The notes below the pieces were generated by a model, which saw only the letters and a list, made by a program, of their open reading frames with translations, ran no database searches and was not told the DNA's origin. A stretch of DNA of 64,000 nt. It comes from a virus. Its lineage: Duplodnaviria > Caudoviricetes. This document shows positions 2,996 through 16,565 of the stretch, one piece after another. The first letter of the stretch is position 1; the number at the start of each line of letters is the position of its first letter. Position numbers and translations under genes: made by a program. The stretch lies in IMG/VR virus record IMGVR_UViG_3300027255_000165. The stretch is one strand, 5' to 3'.

Positions 2996-4668
2996 TTTCG
3001 AGTAATTAGATAATTATTAAGCACCAATGCGTATAAGTTTCTTTTTAGGAACGTATTTATTGCATTGGTAGGAGTTTCAACGATAGGTTCTTCAGGTCCA
3101 TTGAATGAAGTGTTCAACACGACTGGAACGCCTGACACTTCATTGAATTTACTGATTAGCTTGTGATATTTTGGATTGTTATCTGGTGTAACTGATTGAT
3201 AGCGGGCAGTTCCGTCAATGTGAGTAACTGCTGGAATCTTGCTTCTCCATTCTGGTTTAACTTCAGTGGTAACCAGCATGTATGGAGAATACGTATCAAG
3301 TTCGAAGATTTCGGCCTGTTTTTCATATAGCACCGAAGGCGCAAATGGGCGATACCATTCCCTGAGTTTGATTTCACTATTAATGTACTGTGGCATCCAA
3401 GCCTGTTTTGGTGAGGCCAAGATTGAACGACAACCTAGAGCACGTGGACCCATTTCGGAACCCTTCTGAAACCATCCGATGACTCTATTTTCATTCAATA
3501 AATTAGCAACAGTATCTACCATTTCATCTTCTTCAAGTTTTATTACATTAATTGAAGAAGAATAAAGGTCAATTGCATCATTGATTTCTTGTTCAGTATA
3601 TGTTTTTCCAAGATACGCTGTCATCCATCCTTCAGAAGTTGGAATTTTACCCATCAATACATGCGAACCGTAATATGCACAGCCGATGGGAATACCACTG
3701 TCATCAGCAGGAGGCATGAAGTATGCATTATCGTAAATACCTTCTCTAATAATAAGCTCATTAGTGTTACAATTTAAGAAAGATCCGCCAGCTACACAAA
3801 TGTTATTTGAATTGGTTATTTTCTTTGCCATCTTTGCAAGGTGAAGGGACGACAATTCCTGTTCACGCTGATAGAGGCCTGCAACGTTAGCCTTTTGTTG
3901 AAAGTTTGATTGCCATGTTACTTCGGGATAAAAGGTCTGCACCATAACGTACATATCTTCATCTTCAAATCTCGTTTGAATCGGGTGGGAATCAACCCAC
4001 TCCTTATTAGCATAAGATGCAAGCCCCATTAACTTTCCAGCTTGCCACGTATTGTGAACGGGGTTATATACAAGTTGCTTTGAACCCATTCCATATTTAT
4101 GACCAATTGATGTTTCAGCTTCAGGATCTCCTTCTCTAAAAGGATAAACCACCCACTTACAATATGATTGATTGATGGTTTGATCTTTTCTTGAAAAATG
4201 ATAAATTGAGTAACCTTCTGCTAAATGTTCTCCTGGATTCAACCCTGATTCATCGACCTTAAACCAATCTTTAATTGGGGTTTCGTCATTATAAACTGAT
4301 CCCATTGCGTCTGCAACTACAACTGCAGCCTCATCAAAGTCAGAAGCACAGAAAGTTGAATAGGCATGAGCCAGATGGTGAGGAACAAAGTTTAATCTGT
4401 CTCTTGACATACCGGTTTCAATCTCAAACTCTTCTGGAGCCCTATTGATGTCTTCGGTGGTGTTATAGATAAACGCATCTATGTCTTTATACTCCAGGTT
4501 TAATGCCTCTAGACAATATCTCATTGATTCTAGTGGTAAACTATCGGAATGATCAGTTTTAATGCGAGTAACTCTTTCATTGCTGATTGCAACTTTAAGA
4601 TCTCCGTTGATTGTGATTGCAGCTCCTCGATTGTGACCAATCGAGATTCCCATTACTATGTTATTCAT
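2992..4668 (-). CDS. carbamoyltransferase, NodU/CmcH family
   Basis: ERVTRIK, HHLAHAYS, GKLMGLASY, AGGSFLNC, DDSGIPIG, EMGPRALGCRSILA, REWYRPFAP, THIDGTARYQ, LNTSFN. Confidence 0.93.
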   Translation of the reverse strand: MNNIVMGISIGHNRGAAITINGDLKVAISNERVTRIKTDHSDSLPLESMRYCLEALNLEYKDIDAFIYNTTEDINRAPEEFEIETGMSRDRLNFVPHHLAHAYSTFCASDFDEAAVVVADAMGSVYNDETPIKDWFKVDESGLNPGEHLAEGYSIYHFSRKDQTINQSYCKWVVYPFREGDPEAETSIGHKYGMGSKQLVYNPVHNTWQAGKLMGLASYANKEWVDSHPIQTRFEDEDMYVMVQTFYPEVTWQSNFQQKANVAGLYQREQELSSLHLAKMAKKITNSNNICVAGGSFLNCNTNELIIREGIYDNAYFMPPADDSGIPIGCAYYGSHVLMGKIPTSEGWMTAYLGKTYTEQEINDAIDLYSSSINVIKLEEDEMVDTVANLLNENRVIGWFQKGSEMGPRALGCRSILASPKQAWMPQYINSEIKLREWYRPFAPSVLYEKQAEIFELDTYSPYMLVTTEVKPEWRSKIPAVTHIDGTARYQSVTPDNNPKYHKLISKFNEVSGVPVVLNTSFNGPEEPIVETPTNAINTFLKRNLYALVLNNYLITRK

Positions 4669-12326: not shown

Positions 12327-12710
12327 TTATATGTTAAAGAATGAGTAAAGAACCGTTACGATTGCGGCGGCCGCAGCTAAAGAAAGGATAGCGTTGACTA
12401 CCATTTCTGAGTATTGAACTTGGTTTGGAGTGCGACCTTGATTCCAATTAGCAAAAGGCTCTTCAATTAAGACAAAGATAGCTTCAGTTGGACCAAAACT
12501 TTGAAGCTCTAAACCACGCATTTCAAGAATATCATCCAATAATTCGGGCTCATTCTCAACCATGTACGATACTTCATCGTATTCCTGAGTTGTCCAATCC
12601 TGGGATGGATCTAAGTTCAAAAAGCCCATGTAATCTTCTGAGCTTGAATCAAATTGATAATCGCTACGAATGCGATCGATTAGGGTGTTCAAAGTCTTTA
12701 AGTCTCTCAT
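12327..12710 (-). CDS. hypothetical protein with C-terminal membrane anchor
   Basis: ORF track. Confidence 0.55.
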   Translation of the reverse strand: MRDLKTLNTLIDRIRSDYQFDSSSEDYMGFLNLDPSQDWTTQEYDEVSYMVENEPELLDDILEMRGLELQSFGPTEAIFVLIEEPFANWNQGRTPNQVQYSEMVVNAILSLAAAAAIVTVLYSFFNI

Positions 12711-12799: not shown

Positions 12800-12805
12800 A
12801 GATTG

Positions 12806-12879
12806 CTCCCTCTGCTGGACTTGAACCAGCGACCCTCTGATTAACAGTCAGATGCTCTAACCAACTGAGCTAAGAAGGA
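12806..12879 (-). tRNA. tRNA-Asn(GTT)
   Basis: Cloverleaf read manually; anticodon loop CTGTTAA, T-loop TTCAAGT. Confidence 0.95.
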
Positions 12880-12898
12880 ATTCTTGCATGGCATGCTG

Positions 12899-12969
12899 TT
12901 ACCCCGGATAGATTCGAACTACCATTAAGTGGACCAAAACCACTTGTCCTGCCATTAGACGACGGGGTA
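12899..12969 (-). tRNA. tRNA-Gln(TTG)
   Basis: AGTGG-TTTTGGT-CCACT anticodon arm; acceptor TACCCCG/CGGGGTA. Confidence 0.93.
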
Positions 12970-12974
12970 ATATG

Positions 12975-13048
12975 TAGTCCTGACTGGACTCGAACCAGTG
13001 ACCCTTCGCGTATCAGGCGAATGCTCTAACCAACTGAGCTACAAGACT
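12975..13048 (-). tRNA. tRNA-Ile(GAT)
   Basis: TTCGC-CTGATAC-GCGAA anticodon arm. Confidence 0.95.
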
Positions 13049-13075
13049 AAAAGAAATTATATAACTCTTTTTTTG

Positions 13076-13148
<73 letters not shown>

Positions 13149-13206
13149 TGGTTATTCCGAAGAACAGTATTTATATACTAGATCTAAGGGTTGTTTCATT
13201 TGATAA

Positions 13207-13240
13207 TAAAAAAGCCCGGTCAAAGACCGGGCTTTAAAAA
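13207..13240 (-). terminator. intrinsic terminator, possibly bidirectional
   Basis: AAAGCCCGGTC-AAA-GACCGGGCTTT with A/T runs on both sides. Confidence 0.8.
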
Positions 13241-13259
13241 TAGTTAGTATGAAGTTAGA

Positions 13260-14966
13260 TTATTGAATATACTTGTAAATTCTAAGTTCAACAGTAGCTC
13301 CGGCAGCGTTAAGTGAAGTCTCAACACCTGCAACAATTGGACCTGTAAGAGCTGCATGCCTCGTAGGGTCAATAGAATAATTACCAGCGACAATTTCACC
13401 ATCTGCAATCGTTTCAAAATACTTCCCACCGTAACCGGTAAAATACACCGAGTAAGGTACTATGTTCTTAGAACCGTCAAATTGGTGATTAACTCCAGTG
13501 AATTTAATGTATCCTCCCGGTGCAATGCTTAACCATTCAGCTTGAACAGCTCCAGGAATATCACCGACACCCGCTGCTTTATAGGTACCTGCGCCGGATC
13601 CAGGCATAATACCTTTAATGCTTATGTCAGTGTGGTTGTGTACAATCAGAGTGTGAGGGCCTGTTCCTACGTTAACTTCAGTATATGTTGTAGGGAAATA
13701 AGATCCTGCAACTGAACCCGCAGGTGGCATTGGATCTGGTAGAGTAGTTGGTCTGTATACATTTACAAGTGTAACGTCAAAATGCGCAGGCGATGTAATC
13801 GCAATTCCGCCAGTGGCATTGCCAAGTGTGAATAGATTATTTCCAGAAACTGCTGAAATAAAGCTTATGTTGTTTTGTGCTCTGTTAGTTGATGCATAAA
13901 TCCATTTACCTGACGCATTTGCAAGCTCCAAGTTCATAGTGAATTTGTTAATATCGCTCAAAGGTACGTCAGTTAGAGTAACTGAATGACCAGGTCTAAT
14001 TGGAAGCCATGGAGCCGCAGTATTGCCGTTTCCCAAAGGAGTACCGCTAGGAACGCCATAAGACGCTAACCATGCCTTACCAGCTCCTGATCCAATCGCA
14101 GCATCTTCAATCCACACCTTTACAATAGGTTCAGTTGCTGATGCGTTAGTGATTGTAAGAGAGTGTCCACCCGCTGCACCCAAAGAATATGTAGGTTCTA
14201 CAGGAGCTGTTTGGAACTTAAGTGTTGTAGGAAGAGATGTATTAAGTACACCTGACGCTTCAACCACAACTAACATAGGATTGTAGCCCTGTCCAGTGCC
14301 TCCACCTGTAAGACTTAAATTAGTGTGCCAGATATCTCTGGCTATCCAACATACTGCATAATCACCAGAAGGCTGTTCAAGTCTAACAATATCGCCAGCT
14401 CTTAGATCAGCAAATGCAGCTGTAGCTGCGTTTTTAGTAAAAAAGATGCTAAATGAGTTAACCCCATTCACAGCTGGATAAGCCATAGTAGCCCATATGT
14501 TAGAGACCAGATCATTAGTTGAAGCTGTGAATCCACCGTCAGACCATGGTCTGAATTCTACTGTGTTGTCCCATCCTGCAGGACCTGGAGCAACAGCTGC
14601 AGCCCATGAAGAATAAAGACCAGCTGCGGTTTCAGCCCATACTTTTGCGGCAACAACGTCAGAGAAAAGAGGTTGACCAAGTCTACCTGCAAAGTGATTA
14701 ATCATTTCAAGAACTTTAGCATCACCTGCTCCGCCGTCTGACCAGAACATCGGGTGAGCATCGGCTTCGTTCGTGTAACCTAGTGTGAAAGAATCCGACC
14801 AAATTGTCGTTTCACCTGAAATTTCAGCAGGTGGCATAGCACCTTTGCCTAGAGCAAGTTCGGCTGGCATTGCACCCGTTCCGTCCCACTCGTAAAGTTT
14901 GTTTGCTTTAGCGTTAACGCTGCCTAGACCTGGATTAGAAGATCTAAAATATAATGGATTTGGCAT
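13260..14966 (-). CDS. hypothetical virion/structural-type protein inserted in the tRNA island
   Basis: 568-aa Gly/Ala/Thr-rich beta-type ORF with its own GATATATA motif (14993-15000) and flanking terminators; N-terminus resembles the middle of 33550-35037. Confidence 0.6.
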   Translation of the reverse strand: MPNPLYFRSSNPGLGSVNAKANKLYEWDGTGAMPAELALGKGAMPPAEISGETTIWSDSFTLGYTNEADAHPMFWSDGGAGDAKVLEMINHFAGRLGQPLFSDVVAAKVWAETAAGLYSSWAAAVAPGPAGWDNTVEFRPWSDGGFTASTNDLVSNIWATMAYPAVNGVNSFSIFFTKNAATAAFADLRAGDIVRLEQPSGDYAVCWIARDIWHTNLSLTGGGTGQGYNPMLVVVEASGVLNTSLPTTLKFQTAPVEPTYSLGAAGGHSLTITNASATEPIVKVWIEDAAIGSGAGKAWLASYGVPSGTPLGNGNTAAPWLPIRPGHSVTLTDVPLSDINKFTMNLELANASGKWIYASTNRAQNNISFISAVSGNNLFTLGNATGGIAITSPAHFDVTLVNVYRPTTLPDPMPPAGSVAGSYFPTTYTEVNVGTGPHTLIVHNHTDISIKGIMPGSGAGTYKAAGVGDIPGAVQAEWLSIAPGGYIKFTGVNHQFDGSKNIVPYSVYFTGYGGKYFETIADGEIVAGNYSIDPTRHAALTGPIVAGVETSLNAAGATVELRIYKYIQ

Positions 14967-15031
14967 TTTAACTTAAATGTTTTTTGTTTCTGTATATATC
15001 ACATTTAAGACGGTAAAACTTCATCGAGATG

Positions 15032-15060
15032 AAAAAACCCGGTCAAAAAGACCGGGTTTG
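15032..15060 (-). terminator. intrinsic terminator downstream of tRNA-His
   Basis: AAACCCGGTC-TTTTT-GACCGGGTTT followed by a T-run on the minus strand. Confidence 0.8.
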
Positions 15061-15117
15061 ACGGGGGACCGCGTAAAAGCCGTTGCGATCGGCTTGTTGA
15101 TACGCAATTTATATATC

Positions 15118-15195
15118 TGGGGTGACTGATCGGAATCGAACCGACGACCTCTTGAACCACAATCAAGCGCTCTAACCAACTGAGCTACAACCACC
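15118..15195 (-). tRNA. tRNA-His(GTG), with encoded G-1 and CCA
   Basis: CTTGA-TTGTGGT-TCAAG anticodon arm; G-1 opposite C73; ends CCA. Confidence 0.95.
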
Positions 15196-15202
15196 ATTTA
15201 CA

Positions 15203-15429
15203 TTAACACTAGTAACCGGGATTCTGTTTTATTCCACCATTAATCTAAGCCACTACCTTGCCCAGGCTGCTCACCCCTATGGACTATTACGTGTTGCATC
15301 CTCGGTGGTATAACGGTTATAACCTTTCCAAAACTCTGTTTTTTTACTAGTTTTGGAAAGGTTATAACCTTCCACCTTAAGCAGTGATGTCCCGAGTTTC
15401 CTCTCTTTCGAGCGATGGATCAGTGTTAA
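15203..15429 (-). ncRNA. rnpB: minimal RNase P RNA (catalytic domain; specificity domain replaced by one hairpin)
   Basis: Hallmark GAGGAAACTCGGGAC (15403-15389) and AAAACAGAATCCCGGTTA (15230-15213) form P4 with a bulged U. Also P1 TTAACACTG/TAGTGTTAA, P3 CTC-GAAA-GAG, P5 CATC/GATG, GCAA..AATAG, L15-like GGTA and TAGATTAATG. Confidence 0.88.
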
Positions 15430-15433
15430 TTAT

Positions 15434-15637
15434 TTATTCAAAGCTAACGTGGCTGTGAATAGATGTAATTGTACAATGTGGATCAAACTGACATGTTTGT
15501 TTAGAAGCCCACGTTGAAGTGTCAACTAAATCATGATTAGAAGAGCATGAAGTAGATAACATTAGTGTTGCCAATGAAATTGACGCGATAGATAGTGTTG
15601 AAAAAATCATCACTAAAAAGTTCTTAAGATGTTTCAT
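15434..15637 (-). CDS. small putative lipoprotein
   Basis: Signal-like hydrophobic N-terminus ending in STSC. Confidence 0.5.
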   Translation of the reverse strand: MKHLKNFLVMIFSTLSIASISLATLMLSTSCSSNHDLVDTSTWASKQTCQFDPHCTITSIHSHVSFE

Positions 15638-15712
15638 AGTCCCAATGTTATTTTAATGTTATTAACTTATATATCAGTATTAACATATTGTTTACATTGG
15701 GTTAGATCTTAG

Positions 15713-15787
15713 TAGCGGGTGTGGGAGTCGAACCCACGTCGTTTGGCTTATGAGACCAGGCTGGAACCACCTCCAGTCCAACCCGCA
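15713..15787 (-). tRNA. tRNA-Met(CAT), possibly initiator-type
   Basis: Anticodon loop CTCATAA; T1:T72 mismatch as in initiator tRNAs; atypical D arm. Confidence 0.85.
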
Positions 15788-15794
15788 ATGTTAG

Positions 15795-15867
15795 TGGACT
15801 CGGGCAGAATCGAACTGCCGACACATGGATTTTCAGTCCATTGCTCTACCAACTGAGCTACGAGTCC
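15795..15867 (-). tRNA. tRNA-Phe(GAA)
   Basis: ATGGA-CTGAAAA-TCCAT anticodon arm. Confidence 0.95.
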
Positions 15868-15871
15868 ATGG

Positions 15872-15990
15872 GGAAGAGGCTCTGGGTCTTTCAGGGTTTC
15901 TGATAGATGATTTGTTTACGCTCTGATTACTCCAAACCCTTTTTCACCATTTTAACACCATCATCTATTACAGCTTGCACTGCCTCTTCC
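15872..15990 (-). ncRNA. unidentified ~120-nt structured RNA between tRNA-Tyr and tRNA-Phe
   Basis: Terminal stem GGAAGAGGC/GCCTCTTCC, asymmetric bubble, inner ATAGATGAT/ATCATCTAT stem; only 3-4 nt from the flanking tRNAs. Confidence 0.65.
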
Positions 15991-15993
15991 TTG

Positions 15994-16075
15994 TGGGAGT
16001 AGAAGGACTCGAACCTCCGATGTCGTTAGACGATTGATTTACAGTCAACTGCAATAGCCACTATGCGATACTCCC
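15994..16075 (-). tRNA. tRNA-Tyr(GTA)
   Basis: GTTGA-CTGTAAA-TCAAT anticodon arm; long variable arm GTC-TAAC-GAC. Confidence 0.95.
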
Positions 16076-16079
16076 ATTG

Positions 16080-16152
16080 TGATCCCTCCGGGGCTAGAAC
16101 CCGGGACCCGTACATTAAAAGTGTACTGCTCTACCAACTGAGCTAAAGAATC
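16080..16152 (-). tRNA. tRNA-Lys(TTT)
   Basis: GTACA-CTTTTAA-TGTAC anticodon arm; variant T-loop TTCTAGC. Confidence 0.93.
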
Positions 16153-16173
16153 ATTACCACCAAGTCAAAGACC

Positions 16174-16368
16174 TCAGACATCCATCTGCAATTCGTGAAA
16201 GCACTCTTTGCAAAGGAACATCATGTTGTGTTCGTTACGGACATCTGCATCAAAAGGATTCTCAGTCCAAACTCCCAACTTTTGTTCGCAACTTTCGCAA
16301 GTATCAACCAGGTGGCCGAACATTTGCTTAGCTGTTTCTTCGTTTGTCATCATCGTTTTCATAGTCAT
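16174..16368 (-). CDS. small zinc-finger-like hypothetical protein
   Basis: CESC...CKEC motifs; downstream of the promoter motif at 16427-16460. Confidence 0.55.
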   Translation of the reverse strand: MTMKTMMTNEETAKQMFGHLVDTCESCEQKLGVWTENPFDADVRNEHNMMFLCKECFHELQMDV

Positions 16369-16426
16369 AAATTTAATTAAGGTTTACTGTCTCCGTTAAA
16401 TTTGAACCACTATCTGATGATTACTG

Positions 16427-16460
16427 GGCTAATATACAACAAAAACTTGACCCGGTAAAA
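16427..16460 (-). promoter_or_regulatory. repeated putative early/host-RNAP promoter motif, copy 1 of 5
   Basis: TTTTACCGGGTC-N-TTTTTGTTGTATATTAGCCC; related copies at about 18599, 18908, 28797 and 29907, all upstream of minus-strand starts. Confidence 0.7.
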
Positions 16461-16491
16461 CTTTTACGAAACTTTTTTACGGTTGCGATTG

Positions 16492-16565
16492 AGGTGAGTA
16501 GTGGATTCGAACCACTGAACGTCTGTTTTGCAAACAGCTCCCTTAGGCCACTCGAGCAACTCACC
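16492..16565 (-). tRNA. tRNA-Cys(GCA)
   Basis: CTGT-TTGCAAA-ACAG anticodon arm; acceptor GGTGAGT/ACTCACC; U73. Confidence 0.95.

Follow-up and report, generated by a model that had tools for sequence, protein, structure and literature searches.

A miniature bacterial-type RNase P RNA without a specificity domain in the tRNA arrays of phages

RNase P RNA is treated as a universal and essential cellular ribozyme; bacterial versions are about 350–400 nt long, and the RNA of Mycoplasma fermentans keeps a working specificity domain (S-domain). At 276 nt, this last RNA is reduced, and it helped to define the minimal core (Siegel et al. 1996, as cited in PMC8172020). Archaeal type T RNAs (Pyrobaculum/Thermoproteaceae) have lost nearly all of the S-domain and kept the catalytic domain (Lai et al. 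2010, cited in PMC8172020), and Pyrobaculum manages with an RNase P RNA that has no S-domain (PMC3579882, PMC13462272). In the laboratory, an engineered catalytic domain (C-domain) of the Escherichia coli RNA without the S-domain still cleaves pre-tRNA, less efficiently (PMC5839562). Among phages, theta (minimal HDV-like) ribozymes adjoin tRNA genes and have been proposed to free tRNA maturation from host RNases (bioRxiv 10.1101/2023.06.13.544163).

We found no report of a virus-encoded RNase P RNA in the full-text literature; most subscription journals are outside the coverage of that search, and a prior report is possible. The huge-phage paper makes no mention of RNase P in its main text, and in the circularised-megaphage paper Rfam found tRNAs and one tmRNA only. 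Below we describe a widespread phage RNA family for which no published description was found, which does not exclude one elsewhere.

Genes for collagen-like tail fibres and for virion proteins mark the 64-kb stretch of DNA analysed here (the window) as phage DNA, and its sequence recurs in many marine metagenome runs. In a local scan with E-value reporting, RF00010 (RNaseP_bact_a) matched positions 15431..15197(-) over model positions 1–367, with 46.2 bits and E 5.4e-13; it was the top-scoring family of its clan, weaker overlapping clan matches having been suppressed. A search with this very model had been suggested as a check in a preliminary description of the locus, made from the letters alone. 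At the gathering threshold (100 bits) RF00010 gave no match and tRNAs alone were reported for the window. Because the score falls below this threshold, routine annotation misses the gene. A covariance model of the family itself (R1, see below) hit exactly the coordinates first proposed, 15203–15429, on the (-) strand, with 190 bits and E 6.6e-43. The element, whose features are collected in Table 1, has a fold energy z-score of -6.3 and is not overlapped by any ORF of at least 50 aa.

Table 1. Coordinates of the miniature RNase P RNA gene, its structural elements and its neighbours in the window
Feature	Position	Strand	Details	Basis
Whole miniature RNase P RNA gene	15202..15430	(-)	P1 5' strand to P1 3' strand, 229 nt	RF00010 46.2 bits, R1 190 bits
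P1 5' strand	15422..15430	(-)	9 bp with 15202-15210	Read from sequence; 8/8 modelled pairs covary in family
P2 5' strand	15414..15419	(-)	Partner 15233-15238	Both-side changes in 6/6 pairs
Minimal P3	15403..15412	(-)	3-bp stem and GAAA loop	RF00010 alignment and helix map
CR-I (GAGGAAA) and P4 5' strand	15391..15403	(-)	Bulged U 15395; CR-I proper 15397-15403, GAGGAAAGUCC-like	
CR-V (ACAGAA) and P4 3' strand	15214..15227	(-)	CR-V proper 15222-15227	
P5 5' strand	15386..15389	(-)	Partner 15297-15300; J5/15 CAA 15294-15296	
P6 pseudoknot 5' strand CUGCU	15380..15384	(-)	Partner AGCAG 15267-15271 in P17 loop	
Stub in S-domain position	15304..15376	(-)	P7 15372-15376 with 15304-15308, then hairpin	
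21-bp hairpin arms	15349-15369 and 15315-15335	(-)	A-rich 13-nt loop 15336-15348	
Stub 3' joiner GUUAUA	15309-15314	(-)		
P15, P16, P17 and L15	15251..15293	(-)	P15 15291-15293 with 15251-15253; L15 GGU 15255-15257	
J18/2 (UUAGAUUAAU)	15239..15248	(-)	Directly after P15	
tRNA-His	15118..15195	(-)	Encoded G-1 (15195) and encoded CCA; 6-nt 5' leader is the ribozyme 3' tail	
Intrinsic terminator	15035..15059	(-)	3' of tRNA-His; closes the tRNA/ribozyme transcription unit	
67-aa ORF, lipoprotein-like signal	15434..15637	(-)	Directly upstream of the ribozyme, between tRNA-Met and the ribozyme	

The RF00010 alignment covers P1/P2, the minimal P3, CR-I, P5, P15–P17, J18/2 and CR-V. Helices P1-P2-P3 and P5-P15-P16-P17 follow each other in canonical order, and all of them covary. 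The P4 geometry (3 bp, bulged U, 4 bp) is formed by the window sequence from CR-I and CR-V, with base identities at two P4 pairs departing from the Rfam bacterial consensus. Across relatives, P3 ranges from 3 bp up to about 60 nt, and the middle pair of P15 occurs as AU, GC, CG and UA. The full-length RF00010 match, together with covariation, thus bears out the anatomy initially read from the letters, namely both hallmark sequences, P1, P3, P4 with its bulged U, P5, P6 and L15.

The specificity domain (P8–P14), which reads the T-loop/D-loop of tRNA, is missing from the window RNA, where P7 and a hairpin stand instead; in the RF00010 alignment, 103 S-domain model positions are reduced to 33 unaligned nucleotides. 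Also missing, in the window RNA and in every aligned relative, is P18, whose GNRA loop docks in P8. J18/2 follows straight after P15, implying that P18 is absent, and the RF00010 alignment has a clean deletion of 24 positions there with nothing in place, in agreement with the loss of P18 suspected earlier. At the level of sequence and predicted structure, the element is confirmed as a miniature bacterial type A RNase P RNA, consisting of a catalytic domain only, without P18 and with P7 plus a hairpin replacing the S-domain. We also considered an archaeal type T identity and rejected it, since the best clan match is bacterial class A and since P6, P16/17 and the L15 GGU are type A traits.

Relatives of the element were collected in several ways. 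A metagenome scan anchored on J5/15 and CR-V yielded 46 loci with about 35 distinct copies. Model R1 was built from only eight compact members, because MAFFT misaligned the variable P1–P3 region in an 18-sequence alignment (A2); it contains nested helices only, P4 and P6 being left out, and the ends of P1 were set by hand anchors, since automatic duplex folding over-extended helices. R1 recovered 40 copies in the metagenome-scan loci. A second scan, of IMG/VR, relied on the P17 loop, L15 and J18/2 only, leaving CR-I, CR-V, P4 and P5 unselected, and the RNA was present in 42 of the 53 loci. Altogether, metagenomes, IMG/VR and GenBank phages provided about 70 distinct relatives of 176–290 nt, and those members that were scored reached 45–55 bits with RF00010. 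After trimming to the two strands of P1, members measured 176–288 nt. Patterns based on a single DNA motif were abandoned, as they returned mostly chance matches in coding DNA (L001, L094, L120-L126, L143, L174).

In an alignment of 40 relatives (A4), 93.9% of the cells were paired, versus 70.6% after shuffling; double changes occurred in 39 of the 50 pairs, and the covariation score was 0.548, versus 0.06–0.10 when partners were slid. Double changes were found in all five P6 pairs. As P4 and P6 lie outside the model, the alignment was not fitted to them. In an independent sample drawn from the second IMG/VR scan (A5), 96.0% of the cells were paired. For P4, the corresponding value in A5 was 98.6%, with both-side changes in 6 of 7 pairs, and its upper and lower strands combined as CAGG/CCUG, CGCG/CGCG, CCCG/CGGG, CAAC/GUUG and AGGG/CCCU. 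Covariation in related phages, which had been proposed as a further check, is hence observed in every helix, P4 and P6 included.

GAGGAA, the bulged U, GCAA and ACAGAA were kept in a sample not selected for them, and CR-I and CR-V were retained in at least 30 relatives not selected for them. The L15 GGU, which pairs with the 3' RCCA of tRNA, was invariant in 18/18 aligned members, where the search pattern had fixed only CR-IV/CR-V, and it is present in the copies of phage Zooman, LR756502.1 and LR756511.1. J5/15 and CR-V, on the other hand, were fixed by the A4 search pattern; only A5 and the copies derived from blastn can therefore speak to their conservation. Comparative analysis thereby shows the predicted fold to be under selection in every helix, including that of the catalytic P4.

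With the window element or the L158 member as query, blastn against 50,697 phage records either hit tRNAs alone or gave no match. Three copies in INPHARED (GenBank phages) were reached through weak blastn seeds from members of other clades and confirmed by R1. The carriers include LR756502.1 (642 kb) and LR756511.1 (595 kb), published huge phages whose copies are missed by RF00010 at E 0.01 and detected by R1 alone. The cultured Microbacterium phage Zooman has an unannotated gap of 215 nt between tRNA-Arg(ccg) and tRNA-Arg(cct), and the RNA takes up exactly this space (53 bits with RF00010, E 1.4e-16; L180 2398-2610, corresponding to OK040793.1 89338-89558); phage Big4 (ON637770.1, about 91.9 kb) gave the same blastn match. 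Two IMG/VR records carry the RNA inside a tRNA array: L004, a 330-kb contig with a 293-nt copy (RF00010 55 bits), and L127, with a 252-nt copy (45 bits). Unrelated phages are among the carriers, and the sources are marine, sediment and a soil isolate.

Some loci deserve a separate mention. L142 (176-354) combines a 5' half and an upstream ORF of the window type with an L139-type 3' end and terminator; pairing between its P1 strands is lost, and it looks recombinant. L135, a 727-kb metagenome contig, has a tmRNA gene (3207-3567) some 3 kb away from its miniature RNase P RNA. A 373-nt match to bacterial-type RNase P RNA (L175 4360-4732, 51.5 bits) was found on a 16.8-kb contig with tRNAs that is binned as a Candidatus Altiarchaeales MAG; this contig probably comes from a phage and was binned wrongly, and its RNase P RNA would be a less reduced version. 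A search of IMG/VR for relatives of a 568-aa neighbouring protein found none.

The window contains ten tRNA genes, all on the (-) strand (span 12805-16565). Same-strand tRNAs occur on the fetched locus for 59 of the 72 distinct copies; a tRNA follows within 12 nt downstream in 30/72 and precedes within 12 nt upstream in 17/72. Members without an adjoining tRNA exist as well (L130, L139, L178/L179). By occupying a tRNA-like slot in the array, the gene would have its RNA released by ordinary tRNA-end processing. Close relatives (L153, L158, L142) have kept the 67-aa upstream ORF together with the ribozyme; in one seawater RNA-library contig, 968 additional letters separate the two. Near the ribozyme, L004 (11986-12057) and L130 (6859-6934) have tRNAs with a CUA anticodon, labelled Pyl by ARAGORN, which could be amber suppressors and a hint of stop-codon recoding.

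The adjoining tRNA-His with G-1, singled out in the preliminary description, is indeed there, 6 nt after P1. The cleavage there called non-standard is the usual one in bacteria, whose RNase P leaves G-1 on tRNA-His (PMC6582537). All members of the window's clade are followed by tRNA-His; in other clades the downstream neighbour is a tRNA for Trp, Gln, Leu, Met, Lys, Arg, Tyr or Thr. We therefore rejected a special relationship with tRNA-His and its G-1 as a general feature: given that other clades precede different tRNAs, the histidine link is synteny in one clade and not a rule. A full CCA is encoded in the window by tRNA-His only; at the 3' end of the other window tRNAs, the discriminator base is followed by one C and then A or T.

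Some evidence for expression comes from contigs of RNA libraries from four studies (with salt-marsh, estuary and seawater among the habitats), which cover the gene or short-stub relatives; three of them have the short-stub form and one the long-hairpin form. This support is weak, as the contigs do not show the ends, strand or level of the RNA and DNA carry-over is possible.

The arms of the 21-bp inverted repeat are perfect complements flanking a 13-nt loop, as originally described, and 0.01 such matches would be expected by chance; the 21-nt arm sequences do not occur elsewhere in the window. That a 21-bp hairpin replaces the S-domain is true of the window RNA. This long hairpin does not define the family, given that a relative more than 99% identical over the gene and its surroundings has a 13-nt GNRA mini-hairpin. 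Family stubs fall into size classes of 26–34 nt (the majority), 71–73 nt and more than 100 nt. In the 26–34-nt class, P7 is followed by an asymmetric loop, which is conserved, and by a short hairpin that often ends in a GNRA loop. The long-hairpin cassette of the window is shared only with L156/L166.

Two comparisons illustrate how this cassette has moved. L158, whose short-stub RNA (12443-12624) is 182 nt long, matches the window at 299/300 and 298/300 positions in the flanks and at 61/62 and 105/107 positions in the two ribozyme halves, but its stub measures only 13 nt, against 60 nt in the window. L156, conversely, is an otherwise unrelated phage (83/107 in the ribozyme 3' half, about 61% in the flanks) that matches the 60-nt cassette at 55/60 positions, and the differences keep the arms paired; a seawater RNA-library contig provides a third paired variant. 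Since L158 is more than 99% identical and yet has a short stub, the long hairpin is a swapped-in cassette. Judging from these alignments, the 21-bp hairpin is a module acquired in a recent exchange that left the rest of the gene unchanged, and it is not the family norm. As an inference only, RNase III could act on such a perfect duplex of 21 bp.

A few further features of the stubs can be recorded. The base of the window hairpin is a self-complementary 10-mer, GGTTATAACC. Other stubs of 71–73 nt (L188, L227, L201, L221, L200, L219, L193) have different sequences, in which TTATAA-type palindromes are likewise repeated, and share the 3' joiner CGUUAU(U)A. A kink-turn, defined by a 3-nt bulge and then tandem sheared G.A/A.G pairs between two stems, was considered for the internal loop of the stub. 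In the window's clade the fit is loose (5' GA, 3' GUUUGA/GUUUGGA, 4–5-nt loop), the window stub itself having AA and GUUAUA, and in most other members C or U replaces the G of the bulged strand. A kink-turn would accordingly suit only some of the members.

As to a protein partner, the 64-kb window contains no ORF with an RNR motif, consistent with the earlier failure to see rnpA there; this is a weak test, and the window is only part of a genome. PF00825 was searched against whole records. It revealed no RnpA in the records of L004 and L127, nor in those of Zooman and LR756511.1, which are complete genomes. LR756502.1, in contrast, encodes an RnpA of 101–122 aa with the RNR motif (PF00825 52 bits, E 3.4e-14), in a GenBank record that is unannotated; the gene (L181 1435-1803, at about 525.1–525.5 kb, with RnpA at record positions 525189-525473) lies about 90 kb from the miniature RNase P RNA, which is at about 614.6–614.8 kb. 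None of the records of Zooman, LR756502.1, LR756511.1, L004 and L127 has a second, full-size RNase P RNA. On two IMG/VR fragments with RnpA relatives (L236 and L237, 8% and 52% complete) no ribozyme was found, which is uninformative either way. A complete phage-encoded holoenzyme is plausible for LR756502.1 on the strength of these two predicted genes, and carriers without RnpA would have to use the host protein. The initial suggestion of a borrowed host protein accordingly suits the RnpA-less Zooman and LR756511.1, and LR756502.1 has an RnpA gene of its own; the partner itself is inferred.

The data above establish the homology and architecture of the RNA, the selection on its fold, its setting in tRNA arrays and its distribution among phages. 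What we infer from them, and consider probable, is that the element is a phage type A RNase P RNA that trims phage pre-tRNAs, likely with host RnpA; catalysis, partner and benefit all belong to the inference. The RNA would be transcribed within the phage tRNA array and freed by ordinary tRNA-end processing, its 3' end being made by the cleavage at the 5' end of tRNA-His. It would fold into a complete catalytic domain (P1–P5, the P6 pseudoknot, P15–P17 and the P4 core) and, with host RnpA (or phage RnpA in LR756502.1), form an RNase P that removes the 5' leaders of closely packed pre-tRNAs, making the phage tRNA supply independent of the host RNase P RNA. Substrate binding would rest on pairing of the L15 GGU with the 3' CCA of tRNA, on J5/15 and on contact of the protein with the leader, and not on the lost S-domain that reads the T-loop, whose position would be taken by an exchangeable stub, in this case the 21-bp hairpin. 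Against this reading, the metatranscriptome support consists of contigs only, without mapped RNA ends, and the CCA that L15 would bind is encoded by tRNA-His alone among the window tRNAs. Furthermore, with a P3 of 3 bp and with P18 and the S-domain lost, activity in the absence of protein could be low.

The same losses, of the whole S-domain and P18 and of all but a minimal P3, would also suit a non-catalytic decoy or regulator that has kept its surfaces for RnpA and pre-tRNA, sequesters host RnpA or pre-tRNAs and so redirects or throttles host tRNA maturation; moreover, with no RnpA detected in most carriers, the RNA must compete for the host protein. Such a molecule, however, would not need many features that are evidently under selection, such as the bulged U and the full P4 geometry with its many compensatory changes, nor the ACAGAA, the A-rich J3/4 strand, the P6 pseudoknot and the L15 GGU, which are also kept. 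That LR756502.1 supplies its own RnpA makes little sense for a sponge, and we regard the decoy as improbable. Even less can be said for a functionless, decaying remnant of a captured host rnpB. The element is far shorter than the cellular genes and scores below the Rfam threshold, as decay would have it, but some 70 diverged members share the same reduced architecture, with 94–96% pairing and compensatory changes in every helix, and among the phages in which they reside are unrelated ones of marine, sediment and soil-isolate origin. Covariation, a purely comparative argument, effectively refutes decay, to which we assign next to no likelihood.

A different possibility is that the ribozyme is active and has changed its substrates, acting on tight array junctions only, on tRNA-like elements in mRNAs or on its own precursor in cis, possibly without protein. 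Loss of T-loop recognition removes the main check on tRNA shape, the stub is a swappable cassette with three size classes, and the ribozyme lies 0–12 nt from tRNAs, all of which would be in keeping with this proposal. The acceptor-end binders (the L15 GGU and J5/15) are nonetheless canonical, L130, L139 and L178/L179 adjoin no tRNA, and we infer that the 6-nt tether from P1 probably lacks the length needed for cleavage in cis. On balance we think a change of substrates unlikely and retain the reading of a pre-tRNA-trimming RNase P RNA. An extension of that reading, which we offer only as a tentative and rather doubtful hypothesis, is that large phages run their own minimal RNase P (about 180–230 nt, catalytic domain only) that matures the 5' ends of dense tRNA arrays, with host or phage RnpA, under host RNA shutdown, while the stub serves as a horizontally exchangeable tuner of substrate choice or stability. 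If this were true, it would be the smallest bacterial-type RNase P in nature and, as a natural experiment, would show how little RNA is needed to process tRNAs accurately.

A conserved phage family of bacterial-type RNase P RNAs without the S-domain would add 5' end maturation to the tRNA functions of large phages. Natural minimal ribozymes down to 176 nt bear on what RNase P needs for binding, for fidelity and in terms of protein dependence, and the Rfam gathering thresholds used in routine annotation miss such genes. The question can be tested directly, Zooman being cultured and LR756502.1 encoding both subunits, and the cassette swap in near-identical genomes represents a natural pair for studying stub function.

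Compared with bacterial type A RNase P RNA (rnpB, E. coli M1 RNA, RF00010), the phage RNAs have in common CR-I, CR-V, P1–P5 with the bulged-U P4, the P6 pseudoknot with the P17 loop, P15 with the L15 GGU, and J18/2. They differ in size (176–290 nt versus about 350–400 nt), in the absence of P8–P14 and P18, in a P3 of as little as 3 bp and in being carried by phages within tRNA arrays. The type T RNAs, by contrast, are archaeal, cellular and essential, and work with several archaeal proteins, whereas the phage RNAs combine a bacterial type A core, with P6, P16/17 and the L15 GGU, and no more than one protein partner of bacterial type; the resemblance between the two groups is a case of convergent reduction. 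The E. coli C-domain construct indicates that such an architecture can work in principle, but it is laboratory-made and keeps P18 and a full P3, whereas the phage RNAs are natural, evolved and smaller. Relative to the M. fermentans RNA, the shortest phage members (176–182 nt) are about 100 nt shorter. The nearest phage precedent remains that of the theta ribozymes, which are likewise phage-encoded and embedded beside tRNA genes. Theta ribozymes, however, cleave themselves, work in cis on the 3' trailers of tRNAs and have an unrelated fold, whereas the phage RNase P RNA is a homologue of the trans-acting enzyme that matures tRNA 5' ends.
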